From assembly GCA_964016885.1 (NCBI GenBank), contig OZ024755.1, positions 8,308,001 to 8,372,000 of the forward strand: DNA of 64,000 bases. Reading direction: 5' to 3'. The stretch comes from Eledone cirrhosa (lineage: Eukaryota). A program made the position numbers and the translations under genes. Of this stretch, positions 2,591 through 60,410 are shown in pieces. Position 1 is the first letter of the stretch, and every line of letters starts with the position of its first letter. Under the pieces are notes generated by a model, which made no database searches, had not been told where the DNA came from, and saw only the letters and a program-made list of their open reading frames with translations.

Positions 2591-2944
2591 ATCATATAGA
2601 AATATCTCATTGCTGAGATTTGATTCATTTTTATTTTTTGCTTCAAATTATTTTCCTGTATATTACTTGGTTGCCTAAATCTCTATATCTCCTACATAAA
2701 TCTGGGCATATTTATGGTTATAAAGATGGCACGTACAGCATCACAACATTGCCCACTGTATTTTATAGGCGTTCACTTATTGTCTATGATTGTTCAAGTA
2801 GTGACATCTAGTGTCTTGCGTTGAACAATATCTCATAAAACAGCTGTGATTGTTTGACACGGGAATCCTCTAAACGCGACAAATTGCACATTACTGTCAA
2901 AAGTAATTTTGAAATTACTGGCATTAATATAAATAACAGCAATA

Positions 2945-3530
2945 TATTTGTTATTGTTGTTAGGGATGTTATCATTGTTGTTGTCGGTACTATTTTTGGT
3001 CATTGTTTTATTTCTGTTATTATTGTTTTTATTTTGTTTTTGGTATTTTTATTATAATTTTTATTTTTATTATTTTTATTATTAGTTTATTGCTGTTGTT
3101 ATTTTTTATTGTTGTTGTTATTGTTGTTATTTTCTATTGTTGTTATTGTTTTCGTTATTGTTGGTGTTATGCTTGTTATGCTGTTGCTGTTGTGTTTTGT
3201 ATTTTGTATTTTCATTGTTGCTTTCGTCATCAGTGTTGCAGTTTTTGTTATTATTATTCTTAGTATTATTATTAACGGTACTACAGTACTAGTTTGTAAA
3301 CATCAATACTAATGATAATTAAATAAATACAATGATAATTATGAAGATGTTGATTATGACGATAATGATGGAGATGATGACGATGATGATAACACTGCTG
3401 ACGATGATGGCGATATCGATGAGCGATGTGATGATGACAGTTGTAGTGACAATGAGAATTGTGAAGATCATAAACATATTGATGATGACGATGATGTTGA
3501 TGGTGATAAGGAGGAGATGGTGACGATGAC
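2945..3530. repeat. Degenerate (TTA/TTG)n then (GAT)n trinucleotide repeats
   Basis: Read directly; explains the hydrophobic and Met-rich spurious ORFs here. Confidence 0.85.
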
Positions 3531-4489
3531 GTATCAAGGAAGCGAGAAATATCAATTTAATATTGACAGTTTTATAGAAATGACAAGGAAATTTTAAAAC
3601 TTGAAAATTTAAGGAATAAATTGAAATAATGTTAATACGAGACAACAGACCAAAGGGGGCAGAAAATGATACAAGGTATGGCACGACAATATATTGTTTC
3701 ACGTGATTAATGATACAGTACTGAGGACATATCATATGATTAGCCTCGAGAGAAGGATGTACTATTTTTCTATGACATTTGATTATAAGATAATTTCCTG
3801 GTTACAATTTGCGTTGACTGTTTGCTGGTTATAAACCCTCCGTAGTCTTCCGTGATTAACATTATGTGTTCGCTCAGCTAAACATTAAAAACTCTATATG
3901 ATTCTATACAGAAATTGAAACACATTTCCTCATGAAAAAGTCACTCATCAGTCATGTGCTAAATCTCATAGACCAACACTTAGCTATGAATGGAGGGAGA
4001 GAGAGAAGAAAGAAATCAATCGAAAAGGAGTTGTCTGGATTTAGACAATATAGAAATAAAAGCTACCATAATATAGAAAAGAAAAGACAGCGAAGTAAAT
4101 CCCTACGAGTAGTTACATATATTGGCAGTACAGCATGACAAAGTTACGTGAAATAGTTGCATAAGATTCAGTAGAAATTTCGCTTCTGTTTTCCAATATC
4201 GGGAAAAAGACGAGATATCAAAGCAGATTCCTAATACTTTGATGTCTCCAGCAAACTATATTTGAAAAATACTTAGCTAATAGAGAGCCTTTGGCAAAAA
4301 TACCGATGAAGAAGAATAGTTATTATTTTATATGTTTATTTCAATAATTAGTCTGCGGCTTGGGCACCACCATCATACCAACATTAGTACTGGATTTTTT
4401 TCTTAAATTCAAATAGTTATCTTATTGATCTCTTGTTGTGGAACATTTAATTACGAATCATAAACATAATTGTAGAAACACACACACAC

Positions 4490-4569
<80 letters not shown>

Positions 4570-4656
4570 AAACACTAAGTATCGAGTATTCTGGTATGTG
4601 TTATGGTCCACCTGGTATCCTACCACATCTTCTTTGTTATATATATATATATATTA

Positions 4657-4769
4657 GAAAGTGTCGGGGCCCGACGTTTGAGCTCTTGTCGCTTCGACAG
4701 CTAGTTCTAGACACTTTGGATCTAACTATCGAAAAGGCAAGAGTTCATCCATCGAGGCCCATCCCTTTC
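4657..4769. mobile_element. Diverged 113-bp fold-back element built from two inverted HHR 3' halves (same family as 7919-8031)
   Basis: Left arm GAAAGTGTCGGGGCCCGACG...TTCGACAGCTAG aligns to the reverse complement of the right arm. Length and tail (CCCAAGTATCAAGTACTCTG) match the 7919-8031 element; a further tail copy lies at 4567-4639. Confidence 0.7.
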
Positions 4770-4837
4770 TAGTATCCCAAGTATCAAGTACTCTGTTGGA
4801 TAATGAATGCTCTAGCTAGTGTAATACAGGTTTAATC

Positions 4838-4919
<82 letters not shown>

Positions 4920-4976
4920 TATAACCAAAACTGGAATTGAACCATCAGCACAGTTGAGGTATGTCAGACATCAATT

Positions 4977-5042
4977 TATTTTATCTGATGAGTAGGTACT
5001 GATGGAACAGCTCAGTACCTCTGAAATATATATAATAAAATA
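4977..5042 (+). ncRNA. Type I hammerhead ribozyme (PLE-type)
   Basis: Stem I UAUUUUAU/AUAAAAUA; core CUGAUGA 4985-4991; stem II AGGUACUGA/UCAGUACCU; GAAA 5023-5026; palindromic stem III AUAUAUAU; cleavage triplet AUA (after 5034). Confidence 0.75.
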
Positions 5043-5088
5043 TATTTGATCACATGAATGTCTATATTTATTAATATTTTGAAGTTAA

Positions 5089-5150
<62 letters not shown>

Positions 5151-5262
5151 GTCTGTATAAACTCTCTCTATTTCACTCTCTTTCTCATATATTATACATG
5201 TGTGTGTGTGTTATGTTTGTGTTTAGATATGTACATTTGTGTGTTCATAGAAAAGTTTGCAA

Positions 5263-5371
<109 letters not shown>

Positions 5372-7732
5372 GTGTGTGAGTGTGTGTTTTCTAAATATAC
5401 ATTTTTCATACATTAATATAGAAATAACAAAAAAACAAACAAACGAAACAGATATAATTTTTCAGAGAAATGTAAGATCTTTCAAGATTGATAGAACATT
5501 TCAAAATATAAATATTTATTATTTTATAACTAAGTAGCAGTGAATTGATTAATAGATATTACAAAGTTCAGTTAGTTTCTATCATCATTTTATACGCGGA
5601 AAAAAATGTACTCTTTAATAAACTAGAAATATCTAAGTTGCATGAAAAAAAGTCAATATATGTGATCTATGAGACATTATATAGACACATATATGTAATT
5701 AAGATAATATATTTGTTAACGCCAATTGATAGGGTGAATGGCAAACAATGACAATGATTGATGTAATAGATGAGAAATATTTATTATTTCATGTTTGCTA
5801 TATTTTTATGTGATATTTCAAATGCACGACGGACCGGTTAGTATAATCTCTATTTTTCTTAAAATTAAAAAGGATCAGTCTGACCAATAGGCTAACAAAT
5901 TGTTATTCTCCCCCCCCCCCCTCATTGTTGTTGCTATTTGTCGATCAGAACCCTGGCAGAATATCACTGATTTCCACACTAACAGAAAGTGGGATTTCAA
6001 CAAAGAACCTATTCAGCGGAACCGATATCGCAAATTATCCTGTACAACACTTTAACAATTCCACCAATCCACCATGCCTGGACTGCTACACTATTTATCG
6101 ATCTTCAAATGGTAACTAACAAAATGGACCTCAACGAAAATTAAACTCAGAGAGCAGAGAACTGAAATATTTATCGGGGTATTTAATCGAACCATCTTTT
6201 GCCGACTATTTTGTCAACACACCACCTATATATGAAAAATACTAGGTCTCAAAATTGCGATGCAACCATTATGTATGTATGTATGTGACTGGGCTGTATA
6301 TAGACATAGTTATGTGTCGCTATGTGTTCTGTGTTTGTGTGATAACGTCGATGAATAAATATAGTAGATGGTGTTCTTTTAGAAGCCAGCCATTACAGGA
6401 ATATTGATAAGACAGGAAGATCAATGGAAGGCTATCTTTAGTTTTATCAAGCATGACCTTGAATTCTTCACGTGAAATCTGCAGCTCTATCGCTGACAGC
6501 AAGTCTACACACAACACACATACATTAGCTAAGCATTCGTTGCATTCGTGTATTTCGCTGCGTCTTCACACGACACTATCGCTAAGAGGCAGTCTATACA
6601 TATTTACACACACACACACATGTATATATATATATATATATAGTATTGTACTGTTTTATATTTTTGTATATACGAATGTATCGTATGTATGTGAATTTGA
6701 CAAAGTGTTGATGATGAAGTTAGTTGTGGTGAAAGCAGAGACGTTGCTTTATCTATGTTGTATTACATTATTTGTTTATTGTATAGCAATATATATTTAA
6801 GTTTATTGCTTAACATAAAAGGAAGTTTATATTGAAAAGAACGACACAGTTATTGCAAAATTAATTTCAATCTGACATTTAACAATACTCCCCCGAAACA
6901 TGTTAAGCTATTGTTAGAATCTATTATAAAGAAGAAAAAATAAAACATCAGTCGTTTTAAATTACTGAAATGAAAGGGGGAAATTATGTGGAAGTGTCGA
7001 GATTTTCGAAATAGTTCAATTTGGGTGCAAAGTGCCGTGCAACATAGAAATAAATTAGCTACAGATTAACAGCTATTTGACATTTTAATGGAATCGCTTC
7101 GATATTTTCTCTACTGCAGTTACTTAAATTTATACAATTTACTGTTTGTCTCTAGGTGCCTTCTATAACACTCGACCTAATTAGTCTGTATTTCTATGTG
7201 ATGCTAATATTTAACATAGAACACGAAATACGACAAATACTGGACATACACTTGTTCTCTCTAAGTGCTGGAAATAGCAGCTGTACCTTCTTAAACACAG
7301 ATATACATTAGGTAATATTGATCATAGAAATGTATGTTGTGGGATTGACATTCTTATTTCTTTTCTAAGATCTATTTTAATTAAAATTACATTTAATCTC
7401 TTATCAGAGGTGCCTCACGAAATTGGTACACTGGTACACGAAATTGGTACGCTTTTGTGGAGCGAGAGACTCCTAGTCTTCATTAAGACATCTTTCTACG
7501 AGAAGGTCACTCTTATATAAGACCTGCAACTTCGTTTGCCTCCGATGATGTAGACCAGTTCTTCTTTTTGAGTAAATGCATTCGATCTTCAGAGAGAGGG
7601 ATTGGTTTCGTACAAAGACTTTCCTCGCTTAAAAAGCCATGTTTGTGATGCTCGTGCTTAAGTATCAAACGATGACATTACTCAAAATCGAGTAACAGCC
7701 TTCAACATCATCATCATATATATATATATATA

Positions 7733-8601: not shown

Positions 8602-8637
8602 TCTTCTGATGAAGGACTAGCGTCCGAAACGTTGAGA
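8602..8637 (+). ncRNA. Minimal type I hammerhead ribozyme (PLE pseudo-LTR type)
   Basis: UCUU-CUGAUGA-A-GGAC(UAGC)GUCC-GAAAC-GUU-GAGA. Confidence 0.7.
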
Positions 8638-52004: not shown

Positions 52005-52630
<626 letters not shown>

Positions 52631-52651
52631 ATATATATATATATATACATG

Positions 52652-52689
<38 letters not shown>

Positions 52690-52705
52690 CATATCTATCT
52701 ATCTA

Positions 52706-52940
52706 TCTAAGGCGGATAAAATTCCCGAGATCCATGGACGAGTTCTCTCCAGCTGTCTCTGTCCCTCATTATCGCTGCCATATCCTGCATCTGCAACAGA
52801 CCAGTGTCTGTCCTTAGGGCATCAACATATGTTAACCTTGGTCTTCCTCTTCTAGTGTGTCCATGTAGGGGCTCCCAAAGGAGCACTGAGTGCAATGTCA
52901 ACTCTGGATGTCGGTGAGCATGTCCAGCCAATCTCAGTTG
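52706..52940 (-). pseudogene. Second, shorter copy of the same RTE 3' fragment
   Basis: Highly similar to 52244-52476 with the same 3' end, offset 462 bp. Confidence 0.85.
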
Positions 52941-56010: not shown

Positions 56011-56349
56011 ATAAATGTAATCTGAGTTTTTCGAATATTAATAATAACATTCGATTCGTTTGCAATTATGCAAACAAGCCTCAATGTTATAGCCGTGTCA
56101 CTAGCTCTGACAGTTGGGCAGGTGAAACGTGAGCTGTACTGATGAAGGGTGATACCCAGAAACATTAGTGTTTGCAGTTCTGTTCGCATGCCAACACAAG
56201 AGCAAGAATGAAGTATTCATTCCACTGACATGGCTATACAATTAAGGCTTGTTTTCCTAATTGCAAACGAATCGAATGTTATTATTAATATTCGATAAAC
56301 TCAGATTACATTTATTGTATTCAGCCATGTAGAGCGAAAATATTCTTTA
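56011..56349. mobile_element. Fold-back element: 90-bp arms (56011-56100, 56226-56315), intact HHR in the loop, about 34-bp tail, in (TA)n
   Basis: ATAAATGTAATCTGAGTTT..TCGAATATTAATAATAACATTCGATTCGTTTGCAATTA and its reverse complement. Confidence 0.85.
56131..56180 (+). ncRNA. Type I hammerhead ribozyme
   Basis: GAGCUGUA-CUGAUGA-A-GGGU(GAU)ACCC-A-GAA-ACAU(UA)GUGU-U-UGCAGUUC; 8-bp stem I with two G.U pairs. Confidence 0.75.
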
Positions 56350-56426: not shown

Positions 56427-56464
<38 letters not shown>

Positions 56465-56530
56465 GAAGAGAGAAGAAACATTTAGATATAATTAGTAATA
56501 AAATGTATCATACCTAAACTGTTCCTAAAT

Positions 56531-56618
56531 TCCTCGACTACGTAGTTTCGTGGCATAAACAAAAACAATATATCAAAGATATAGAGTCCTTGCGAGGTCT
56601 GCCGACTTATCAAGAGGA
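56531..56618 (-). ncRNA. Type I hammerhead ribozyme, U3-A8 variant core
   Basis: Reverse complement of the motif at 58263-58350. Confidence 0.8.
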
Positions 56619-57121
56619 TACCTCATTTTACTAGTCTCAAGAACGCGTCTACACGACGTGAGAAAGAATCCCAAAAGGCGGAGGGGGAGATAGTCACGCG
56701 ATATAACGGTCGAGAAACAGAGCTAAGCCTCTTATAACCACGAAAAAAATACCACGGAGGCGGAGGGGGTATTCATATCGAGGCCGTAGAAGAGGTAGTG
56801 AAGAAGGCGAGAAGTATGAGTAATGGAAGCTTTCCAGTTGTCCCCACACTTCAAAGATTGCTCGACCAGAGGGAGTTATTAATACATTTAGAAACACACA
56901 GATACATGCGGACACACACATATATACATGAATGCATCCGCACCCAACTGTGAGTTAAGGGTGCCAACTTCACTGATGTTGCTCAATGAATGACTGGGAC
57001 AGACCAATTCAGTTTGAACCAGACTGAACCAGTATCAGAGTTAAAAATACATTATGAAGAGAGAAGAAACATTTAGATATAATTAGTAATAAAATGTATC
57101 ATACCTAAACTGTTCCTAAAT

Positions 57122-57209
57122 TCCTCGACTACGTAGTTTCGTGGCATAAACAAAAACAATATATCAAAGATATAGAGTCCTTGCGAGGTCTGCCGACTTA
57201 TCAAGAGGA
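57122..57209 (-). ncRNA. Type I hammerhead ribozyme, U3-A8 variant core
   Basis: Reverse complement of the motif at 58263-58350. Confidence 0.8.
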
Positions 57210-57679
57210 TACCTCATTTTACTAGTCTCAAGAACGCGTCTACACGACGTGAGAAAGAATCCCAAAAGGCGGAGGGGGAGATAGTCACGCGATATAACGG
57301 TCGAGAAACAGAGCTAAGCCTCTTATAACCACGAAAAAAATACCACGGAGGCGGAGGGGGTATTCATATCGAGGCCGTAGAAGAGGTAGTGAAGAAGGCG
57401 AGAAGTATGAGTAATGGAAGCTTTCCAGTTGTCCCCACACTTCAAAGATTGCTCGACCAGAGGGAGTTATTAATACATTTAGAAACACACAGATACATGC
57501 GGACACACACATATATACATGAATGCATCCGCACCCAACTGTGAGTTAAGGGTGCCAACTTCACTGATGTTGCTCAATGAATGACTGGGACAGACCAATT
57601 CAGTTTGAACCAGACTGAACCAGTATCAGAGTTAAAAATACATTATGAAGAGAGAAGAAACATTTAGATATAATTAGTA

Positions 57680-57759
57680 ATAAGTCGGCAGACCTCGCAA
57701 GGACTCTATATCTTTGATATATTGTTTTTGTTTATGCCACGAAACTACGTAGTCGAGGA
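57680..57759 (+). ncRNA. 5'-truncated hammerhead at the inversion junction
   Basis: Lacks the 5' strand of stem I and the UUG of the core; starts at AUAA-GUCGGCA. Confidence 0.7.
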
Positions 57760-58262
57760 ATTTAGGAACAGTTTAGGTATGATACATTTTATTACTAATT
57801 ATATCTAAATGTTTCTTCTCTCTTCATAATGTATTTTTAACTCTGATACTGGTTCAGTCTGGTTCAAACTGAATTGGTCTGTCCCAGTCATTCATTGAGC
57901 AACATCAGTGAAGTTGGCACCCTTAACTCACAGTTGGGTGCGGATGCATTCATGTATATATGTGTGTGTCCGCATGTATCTGTGTGTTTCTAAATGTATT
58001 AATAACTCCCTCTGGTCGAACAATCTTTGAAGTGTGGGGACAACTGGAAAGCTTCCATTACTCATACTTCTCGCCTTCTTCACTACCTCTTCTACGGCCT
58101 CGATATGAATACCCCCTCCGCCTCCGTGGTATTTTTTTCGTGGTTATAAGAGGCTTAGCTCTGTTTCTCGACCGTTATATCGCGTGACTATCTCCCCCTC
58201 CGCCTTTTGGGATTCTTTCTCACGTCGTGTAGACGCGCTCTTGAGACTAGTAAAATGAGGTA

Positions 58263-58350
58263 TCCTCTTGATAAGTCGGCAGACCTCGCAAGGACTCTAT
58301 ATCTTTGATATATTGTTTTTGTTTATGCCACGAAACTACGTAGTCGAGGA
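58263..58350 (+). ncRNA. Type I hammerhead ribozyme, U3-A8 variant core
   Basis: Stem I UCCUC/GAGGA; core UUGAUAA 58268-58274; stem II GU(C)GGCA/UGCCAC closing a 44-nt insert; GAA-ACUACGUAGU-C; predicted cleavage after C58345. Confidence 0.8.
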
Positions 58351-58853
58351 ATTTAGGAACAGTTTAGGTATGATACATTTTATTACTAATTATATCTAAA
58401 TGTTTCTTCTCTCTTCATAATGTATTTTTAACTCTGATACTGGTTCAGTCTGGTTCAAACTGAATTGGTCTGTCCCAGTCATTCATTGAGCAACATCAGT
58501 GAAGTTGGCACCCTTAACTCACAGTTGGGTGCGGATGCATTCATGTATATATGTGTGTGTCCGCATGTATCTGTGTGTTTCTAAATGTATTAATAACTCC
58601 CTCTGGTCGAGCAATCTTTGAAGTGTGGGGACAACTGGAAAGCTTCCATTACTCATACTTCTCGCCTTCTTCACTACCTCTTCTACGGCCTCGATATGAA
58701 TACCCCCTCCGCCTCCGTGGTATTTTTTTCGTTGTTATAAGAGGCTTAGCTCTGTTTCTCGACCGTTATATCGCGTGACTATCTCCCCCTCCGCCTTTTG
58801 GGATTCTTTCTCACGTCGTGTAGACGCGTTCTTGAGACTAGTAAAATGAGGTA

Positions 58854-58941
58854 TCCTCTTGATAAGTCGGCAGACCTCGCAAGGACTCTATATCTTTGAT
58901 ATATTGTTTTTGTTTATGCCACGAAACTACGTAGTCGAGGA
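58854..58941 (+). ncRNA. Type I hammerhead ribozyme, U3-A8 variant core
   Basis: Identical copy; predicted cleavage after 58936. Confidence 0.8.
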
Positions 58942-59444
58942 ATTTAGGAACAGTTTAGGTATGATACATTTTATTACTAATTATATCTAAATGTTTCTTC
59001 TCTCTTCATAATGTATTTTTAACTCTGATACTGGTTCAGTCTGGTTCAAACTGAATTGGTCTGTCCCAGTCATTCATTGAGCAACATCAGTGAAGTTGGC
59101 ACCCTTAACTCACAGTTGGGTGCGGATGCATTCATGTATATATGTGTGTGTCCGCATGTATCTGTGTGTTTCTAAATGTATTAATAACTCCCTCTGGTCG
59201 AACAATCTTTGAAGTGTGGGGACAACTGGAAAGCTTCCATTACTCATACTTCTCGCCTTCTTCACTACCTCTTCTACGGCCTCGATATGAATACCCCCTC
59301 CGCCTCCGTGGTATTTTTTTCGTGGTTATAAGAGGCTTAGCTCTGTTTCTCGACCGTTATATCGCGTGACTATCTCCCCCTCCGCCTTTTGGGATTCTTT
59401 CTCACGTCGTGTAGACGCGCTCTTGAGACTAGTAAAATGAGGTA

Positions 59445-59532
59445 TCCTCTTGATAAGTCGGCAGACCTCGCAAGGACTCTATATCTTTGATATATTGTTT
59501 TTGTTTATGCCACGAAACTACGTAGTCGAGGA
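59445..59532 (+). ncRNA. Type I hammerhead ribozyme, U3-A8 variant core
   Basis: Identical copy; predicted cleavage after 59527. Confidence 0.8.
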
Positions 59533-60035
59533 ATTTAGGAACAGTTTAGGTATGATACATTTTATTACTAATTATATCTAAATGTTTCTTCTCTCTTCAT
59601 AATGTATTTTTAACTCTGATACTGGTTCAGTCTGGTTCAAACTGAATTGGTCTGTCCCAGTCATTCATTGAGCAACATCAGTGAAGTTGGCACCCTTAAC
59701 TCACAGTTGGGTGCGGATGCATTCATGTATATATGTGTGTGTCCGCATGTATCTGTGTGTTTCTAAATGTATTAATAACTCCCTCTGGTCGAGCAATCTT
59801 TGAAGTGTGGGGACAACTGGAAAGCTTCCATTACTCATACTTCTCGCCTTCTTCACTACCTCTTCTACGGCCTCGATATGAATACCCCCTCCGCCTCCGT
59901 GGTATTTTTTTCGTGGTTATAAGAGGCTTAGCTCTGTTTCTCGACCGTTATATCGCGTGACTATCTCCCCCTCCGCCTTTTGGGATTCTTTCTCACGTCG
60001 TGTAGACGCGTTCTTGAGACTAGTAAAATGAGGTA

Positions 60036-60123
60036 TCCTCTTGATAAGTCGGCAGACCTCGCAAGGACTCTATATCTTTGATATATTGTGTTTGTTTATG
60101 CCACGAAACTACGTAGTCGAGGA
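60036..60123 (+). ncRNA. Type I hammerhead ribozyme, U3-A8 variant core
   Basis: One T>G change at 60090 in the stem II insert; predicted cleavage after 60118. Confidence 0.8.
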
Positions 60124-60357
60124 ATTTAGGAACAGTTTAGGTATGATACATTTTATTACTAATTATATCTAAATGTTTCTTCTCTCTTCATAATGTATTT
60201 TTAACTCTGATACTGGTTCAGTCTGGTTCAAACTGAATTGGTCTGTCCCAGTCATTCATTGAGCAACATCAGTGAAGTTGGCACCCTTAACTCACAGTTG
60301 GGTGCGGATGCATTCATGTATATATGTGTGTGTCCGCATGTATCTGTGTGTTTCTAA

Positions 60358-60410
<53 letters not shown>

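Follow-up and report, generated by a model that had tools for sequence, protein, structure and literature searches.

In the parts of the published work drawn on here, natural hammerhead ribozymes with U and A at positions 3 and 8 (U3-A8) go back to 2011, when Perreault et al. reported them alongside earlier in vitro activity of such swaps (PMC3088659). The same study describes pseudoknots in around 40% of its hammerheads, belonging to all three types, in which 5–7 bp hold stems I and II parallel. In 2014, Cervera and de la Pena applied their own search descriptor and reported around 1,300 U3-A8 motifs in the Penelope-like elements (PLEs) of Schistosoma, with the heptamer UUGAUAA listed in the supplement for S. 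mansoni(3) (PMC4209133). Craig et al. (2021) describe for PLEs partial tandem copies, a 5′ copy in inverted orientation, a tail on one of the ends and (TA)n targets, and call the role of the hammerhead in these elements unclear (PMC8557442). Frangieh et al. (2024) explain the PLE tail by two internal start sites of reverse transcription; in the Anolis element which they describe, mutations of the ribozyme had no effect on insertion in vitro (PMC11167929). Animal retrozymes are argued to be non-autonomous derivatives of PLEs (Li et al. 2026, bioRxiv 10.64898/2026.07.22.740005), the circle model of their spread is reviewed in PMC6765202, and for other retrozymes ligation by RtcB is far better than self-ligation (Cervera and de la Pena 2020, PMC7229834).

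The locus considered here lies in the window, i.e., the whole 64-kb stretch of Eledone cirrhosa DNA that was analysed. The initial annotation took its UUGAUAA core to be new. This novelty does not hold, since natural U3-A8 hammerheads were published in 2011 (PMC3088659) and the very same heptamer in 2014 (PMC4209133). Of more use is the element that carries it, a large non-LTR retrozyme whose insertions are clearly of Penelope type, with a predicted pseudoknot and selection strong enough to be measured. The ribozyme is a type I hammerhead at 58263–58350 (+), composed of stem I (UCCUC/GAGGA), the core UUGAUAA, stem II, GAAA and GUC. The core, GAAA, GUC and stems I and II are all found within the coordinates given by the initial annotation, which overlooked the palindromic helix III, the pseudoknot and the repeat context. 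The parts are as follows:

58256–58261, forward strand: 5′ strand of the predicted pseudoknot, UGAGGU, just 5′ of stem I and outside the stretch first annotated
58263–58267, forward strand: 5′ strand of stem I, UCCUC (structure parse)
58268–58274, forward strand: catalytic core UUGAUAA, with U3 at 58268 and A8 at 58273
58275–58281, forward strand: 5′ strand of stem II, with G10.1 at 58275 and C58277 bulged
58283–58288, forward strand: 3′ strand of the predicted pseudoknot, ACCUCG, in loop II
58298–58312, forward strand: loop II hairpin UAUAUC/GAUAUA
58326–58331, forward strand: 3′ strand of stem II, with C11.1 at 58331
58332–58345, forward strand: GAAA box (58332–58335), palindromic helix III and C17 at 58345 (structure parse)
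Between 58345 and 58346, forward strand: predicted cut, after GUC (structure parse)
58346–58350, forward strand: 3′ strand of stem I, GAGGA (structure parse)

Stem II has 6 bp, starts with G10.1-C11.1 and carries a single bulged C (58277). All positions required of the core are present (N3-U4-G5-A6-N7-N8-A9, G12-A13-A14, A15.1-U16.1 and H17, with a Watson-Crick pair between 3 and 8), and the three-helix layout is complete, with stem I open and G10.1-C11.1 in place. Helix III is a perfect 10-nt palindrome (58335–58344) with an energy of +0.8 kcal/mol as a monomer and -12.9 kcal/mol as a dimer; such an unstable palindromic helix III is a feature of the PLE-type dimer hammerheads. The extra unpaired base between A9 and G10.1, a trait of the min-HHRs, is absent in the repeat family of this locus (family A), where G10.1 directly follows A9, and present in another family of the same genome (family F). 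The hammerhead pattern has 7 matches in the 64-kb window vs 0.05 expected by chance. Folding of the isolated 58263–58350 fragment does not predict the hammerhead (z -0.19), the MFE of the fragment being -22.6 kcal/mol and the energy of the hammerhead, leaving the pseudoknot aside, -8 to -12 kcal/mol. The Rfam hammerhead models give zero matches, either at the gathering score or at E<=10, as expected by the initial annotation, which had stated that standard searches would miss this family. These models are insensitive to such forms, since the canonical-core hammerhead at 56139 was missed too. Weak matches to miRNA-type Rfam models were rejected as chance in AT-rich sequence. The family A motif almost certainly folds as a hammerhead, and its cleavage in vivo is predicted with good confidence. 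A hairpin GAGG-UAU-CCUC at 58257–58267 (+) competes with stem I and the pseudoknot and can sequester both, and it is possible that it serves as an off-state for the circle.

The ribozyme sits in every 591-bp unit of a tandem-plus-inverted repeat, whose local insertion has the following parts:

56460–60362, no strand assigned: whole family A insertion, with (TA)n on both flanks and without a long ORF
56460–57683, reverse strand: inverted arm of around 2 units, terminating on its outer side at the proximal fixed end (+76 to +80 past the cut site)
57680–60362, forward strand: forward arm of around 4.5 units, terminating on its outer side at the distal fixed end (+245)
58346–58936, forward strand: a complete 591-nt unit between successive cut sites, predicted to be excised and circularised as RNA
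58421–58590, forward strand: Penelope-type tail, bounded by the two fixed ends of insertion (+76 to +245)
56531–56625, reverse strand: complete hammerhead copy in the inverted arm (window pattern match)
57122–57216, reverse strand: complete hammerhead copy in the inverted arm (window pattern match)
57680–57759, forward strand: 5′-truncated hammerhead copy at the inversion junction, broken inside the core
58847–58941, forward strand: complete hammerhead copy (window pattern match)
59438–59532, forward strand: complete hammerhead copy (window pattern match)
60029–60123, forward strand: complete hammerhead copy (window pattern match)

The arms join 5′ to 5′ with a 4-nt overlap (57680–57683), and the window holds 6 complete hammerhead copies of family A and 1 truncated. 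In the genome (3.0 Gb), exact pattern searches found 7,458 matches to a 23-nt piece of the 3′ half of the ribozyme and 0 for the reversed control. The longest stop-free frame in the 591-nt unit is 86 aa and, as in non-LTR retrozymes, the tandem units each carry a type I hammerhead and lack coding capacity. Related units are 580 nt (family B) and 707 nt (family F) long. Units inside the window are >99% identical. Units 1 and 3 of the forward arm share two variants absent from units 2 and 4 and from the inverted arm (57755–60118, +). This ABAB pattern likely results from a later two-unit duplication or is an effect of the assembly; a dimeric circle as its source was ruled out, as the inverted arm shows no alternation. 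In one sequencing run (of unspecified kind, among four contig runs examined) the unit appears as a single closed 621-nt contig, which is also expected from tandem DNA.

The window contains other elements as well. A canonical-core (C3-G8) type I hammerhead of a different family is located at 56131–56180 (+), inside a 90-bp inverted repeat (56011–56100 and 56226–56315), with relatives in loci L178 and L207. At 4977–5042 (+) and 8602–8637 (+) there are two further type I hammerheads, again of other families, which have C3-G8 and a palindromic helix III; the second of them has relatives in L041. Between (TA)n runs at 52258–52900 there are 2–3 short remnants whose translation reads like what we take to be the 3′ end of an RTE-type LINE.

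The reading of the core as a hammerhead with a compensated 3-8 pair, proposed in the initial annotation, is supported by the anatomy given above and by covariation between families. Within family A, the 6,987 genome matches to the 5′ half comprise 6,972 with U3-A8, 8 with U3-G8, 7 with C3-A8 and 0 with C3-G8, i.e., they show no covariation of positions 3 and 8. Between families the pair is exchanged as a whole. It is U3-A8 in 39/39 full matches of family B (overlapping loci may be counted twice in this tally and in the N1 and N2 tallies), U3-A8 in 21/21 of family C and C3-G8 in 22/22 of family F, where the C and F counts come from the 20 best loci per query and, as the query held the core, their letters lean to those of the query. 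These families form a chain of homology: A and B are 71% identical (E 4e-98, whole unit), B and C share a segment (E 2e-6), and C and F (E 2e-66, also 9e-44) are 71% identical over around 750 nt. Therefore, with U-A in A, B and C and C-G in F, covariation between homologues holds, and the check proposed in the initial annotation turns out positive between homologous families and negative within family A. Across around 950 kb of loci, nearly all recurring hammerhead families have C-G or U-A at 3-8. The exception is one family with C-G in 13 matches and A-G in 5; other mismatched cores are single copies, copies that were deliberately searched for, or AT-repeat artefacts. Two adjacent units (G000:C19:18237718 and 18238309) both carry U3-G8, so at least one event of copying, or else a local duplication, may have involved this wobble version. 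An A9C change of the core is common to three family C copies (L246 and L251). A pattern guessed for a relative with an altered stem I had 0 genome matches.

The genome is rich in GIY-YIG elements, with 10,597 candidates. Among the 50 GIY-YIG loci examined, none holds an autonomous element sharing sequence with family A. L198 is an autonomous element encoding RT and GIY-YIG in a 938-aa frame (2809–5622, -), with pLTR copies near 1452 and 6431, and presumably Neptune-like, judged from its cysteine linker. Its ends fall near +70 and +140, following the same two-end rule as family A, and its target is likewise (TA)n. The hammerhead of L198 is U3-A8 (15/15), with the core UUGAAAA. The tail motif common to families A, B, C and F is missing from this element. 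U3-A8 is also found in a sister family of L198 (L192, L214) and in L216 at 5998–6040; thus, the variant is common in the genome.

Selection on the ribozyme was estimated from the first 100 of 655 insertions matching a 3′ anchor outside the ribozyme, of which 97 gave usable alignments. Variants common to at least 3 insertions were considered recurrent, i.e., inherited, and CpG transitions were excluded. Recurrent variants affect 0/44 sites of the ribozyme frame vs 114/547 other sites (Fisher p 9e-5; 97 insertions), and a control with same-size blocks placed elsewhere in the unit gives p from 0 to 0.011 over four definitions, all these p values being indicative, since the sites do not represent independent events. 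Rare variants, most of them younger than the insertion, have the same frequency inside and outside the frame (0.94% vs 0.95%). The sole inherited change in the frame in the block-placement analysis is the bulged C58277. When family A is compared with the older family B, the two longest identical runs are the two halves of the core. The selection on the motif postulated in the initial annotation is visible as a frame devoid of recurrent variants in which rare ones accumulate at the background rate, and the motif is real and probably functional.

The initial annotation described stem II as branched, with two sub-hairpins, CCU-CGCA-AGG and UAUAUC/GAUAUA. The latter is supported by a compensatory change from U-A to C-G in family B. 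The former fails, as its AGG arm varies freely: AGG is kept in 56/101 locus haplotypes, the others having AAA (12), AAG (8) or GGG (15), and inherited changes occur at all three positions and in family B. ACCUCG or ACCUCA is kept in 94/98 locus haplotypes, ACCUC and the upstream GAGGU are near-fixed, and the commonest change beside them converts a U-G pair into U-A. The UGAGGU/ACCUCG duplex has an energy of -8.0 kcal/mol vs -1.1 kcal/mol for CCU-CGCA-AGG. In a 15-row alignment of families A, B, C and F, 93% of the pseudoknot cells are paired (the unpaired ones reflecting a one-column misalignment of family F) vs 67% for the hairpin. In six families with a long loop II (A, D, E, F, G and H), the upstream strand of each pairs with its own loop in one register, by 5–7 bp of different letters, where the register was set after the families were seen and D, E, G and H have 1–2 copies each. 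The true pairing of upstream strands and loops ranks first of 720 permutations, with the qualification that the family E strand also pairs by 7 bp with the family D loop and that A and F are related. Of the families with a shorter loop II, 9/11 reach only 2–3 bp at this register. A pseudoknot between the region of stem I and loop II, rather than a doubly branched stem II, is thus predicted with considerable confidence. Long-loop C3-G8 hammerhead families with the same predicted pseudoknot in other letters were seen in L199 (6510–7419, +; a 459-bp tandem), L040 (738–840, +), L042 (1340–1440, +) and L119 (near 2274, -).

The geometry of insertion was followed in 99 family A insertions, chosen so that one arm ends at +76–80 past the cut site; the mis-oriented L076 was left out of all counts, and L070, L135, L144 and L167 also out of the 155 arms mentioned below. 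Inverted insertions account for 64/99, and in them the other arm ends at +245–248 in 54 and at +80 in 1. Loci chosen by the ribozyme instead follow the same rule of one end of each kind. The two fixed ends are therefore 165–170 nt apart, one per arm. A motif at 58480–58512 (+), located between them, is common to families A, B, C and F and is a candidate site for binding of the helper protein. The lengths of the two arms show no correlation, overlaps at the junctions are mostly 0–5 nt, and the stopping rate is roughly constant with length. Of the 155 arms, 133 continue across one cut site or more, and only 2/184 passes stop at +1 to +5, so a cleaved linear RNA is not the template. A pile-up of 5′ ends at the cut site, hinted at by a biased family B sample, was rejected for family A, of which an unbiased sample had 8 ends at +1 to +16 vs 5.7 expected. 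Among alleles private to one insertion, 28 are present in all of its copies (13 of them across both arms) and 166 in only some. The shared ones may represent small subfamilies with no other member among the 100 insertions sampled out of thousands. Family A thus displays 5′ truncation, partial tandems, an inverted 5′ copy, a microsatellite target and two fixed 3′ ends, as expected of a non-autonomous Penelope-like element, and its Penelope-type mobilisation is concluded with high confidence.

Taken together, the likely reading is that each unit of this non-coding Penelope-type repeat carries a U3-A8 hammerhead, which likely cleaves as a dimer, and that the product is circularised and copied by a borrowed enzyme. 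Following the literature and the shape of the insertions, the tandem units would be transcribed and cleavage after GUC would release unit RNAs of 591 nt. Covariation and energies suggest that two ribozymes would fold together through the palindromic helix III, with the pseudoknot holding stems I and II. By analogy with other retrozymes, the unit RNAs could be ligated into circles by an RtcB-type host ligase. A borrowed Penelope-like reverse transcriptase-endonuclease would then prime from both nicked target strands at (TA)n sites, starting at two fixed sites of the template (+76–80 and +245), and the two cDNAs would run round the circle, stop at random and join by microhomology. A circular RNA is favoured as the template, with some reserve.

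An uncleaved multimer would explain the lack of 5′ ends at the cut site just as well as a circle would. With such a multimer, the fold would be kept for binding or folding, as a protein handle, or for cleavage at another step, and new copies would derive from uncleaved multimeric transcripts. The published parts of PMC11167929 considered here point in this direction, as the Anolis ribozyme needed protein in order to cut, insertion in vitro went ahead with its mutants and no RNA reads ended at the cut, and the dimer-type PLE hammerheads are poor cleavers in vitro (PMC4209133). However, it is all the catalytic positions of family A, and not the stems alone, that show no inherited change, and positions 3 and 8 are swapped as a pair between families. 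Moreover, around one stop per 520 nt would shorten the arrays in each round, yet arms of 4–5 units exist in which different units have alleles in common. Copying from uncleaved multimers is regarded as the less likely but still a fair alternative, and cleavage followed by circularisation stays the preferred reading.

The model of the initial annotation, a new ribozyme family with a branched stem II of two sub-hairpins and no long-range contact, draws on the fact that CCU-CGCA-AGG can form in the subfamily of the window (-1.1 kcal/mol) and that the second hairpin is supported. It is very improbable, considering that inherited lineages, and family B too, have changes in the AGG arm, that ACCUC and the upstream GAGGU stay fixed and that U3-A8 had already been published. 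Even less credence is given to a dead hammerhead relic in a satellite spread by duplication of DNA, in which the sameness of the core would reflect recent amplification. The >99% identity of the window units and the ABAB pattern, suggesting one local duplication, would agree with it, but the copies are dispersed, 5′-truncated and inverted with fixed 3′ ends, and families A and B diverge by up to 29% outside an unchanged core. Rare variants strike the core at the neutral rate and inherited ones do not, which contradicts a relic.

A wider reading is put forward tentatively, with slightly less than an even chance of being right. According to it, pseudoknot-braced dimer-type hammerheads drive large retrozymes, cleavage and circularisation are required for their spread, and a Penelope-like protein dimer primes each of the two target strands from its own fixed site, these sites lying 165 nt apart on a single RNA circle. 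If true, it would provide genome-scale evidence for selection on PLE-type hammerheads in the transposition cycle, a question left open in the literature. The thousands of copies give a direct signal of selection on the ribozyme, the sister families provide natural variants of both kinds, C3-G8 and U3-A8, that differ in the letters of the pseudoknot, and the rule of one start site per arm is a sharp prediction for priming by a Penelope-like dimer; together, they make the circle model testable by standard assays. Descriptor searches which cap loop II or require CUGANGA would undercount such families. A literature search (pseudoknot with Penelope or retrozyme; U3-A8) returned no pseudoknotted dimer-type hammerhead in such an element, although Lunse et al. 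2017, on PLE hammerhead dimers, could describe such variants.

The comparison with known systems refers to the parts of the cited papers used here. Family A resembles the min-HHRs of Schistosoma mansoni PLEs in its compensated core, heptamer, type I topology, palindromic helix III and PLE context (PMC4209133). Unlike them, it has a helix III that is not minimal but a 10-nt palindrome, its G10.1 follows A9 without an additional base, and its loop II, of 44 nt, contains a hairpin and takes part in the predicted pseudoknot. With animal non-LTR retrozymes it shares non-coding tandems, a type I hammerhead per unit, thousands of copies, a GC content <45% and co-occurring PLEs (PMC7229834; bioRxiv 10.64898/2026.07.22.740005). 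It differs from them in its unit of 591 nt vs around 170–400 nt (a matter of the size of described cases, not of mechanism), in the non-canonical core and in the predicted pseudoknot, which replaces the usual contacts between loops 1 and 2; in the portions of these two sources used here, no description of a retrozyme with PLE-type inverted arms and tail was found. The 5′ truncation, partial tandems, inverted 5′ copy, (TA)n targets and two internal start sites are those of Neptune/Poseidon PLEs (PMC8557442; PMC11167929), whereas family A has no ORF, a tail of 165–170 nt instead of 30–40 bp, and arms that use different start sites almost without exception. Finally, family A is similar to the pseudoknotted hammerheads of PMC3088659 in the pseudoknot, here predicted, that braces stems I and II, and unlike them it belongs to an animal retroelement and combines this pseudoknot with a palindromic helix III of the dimer type.
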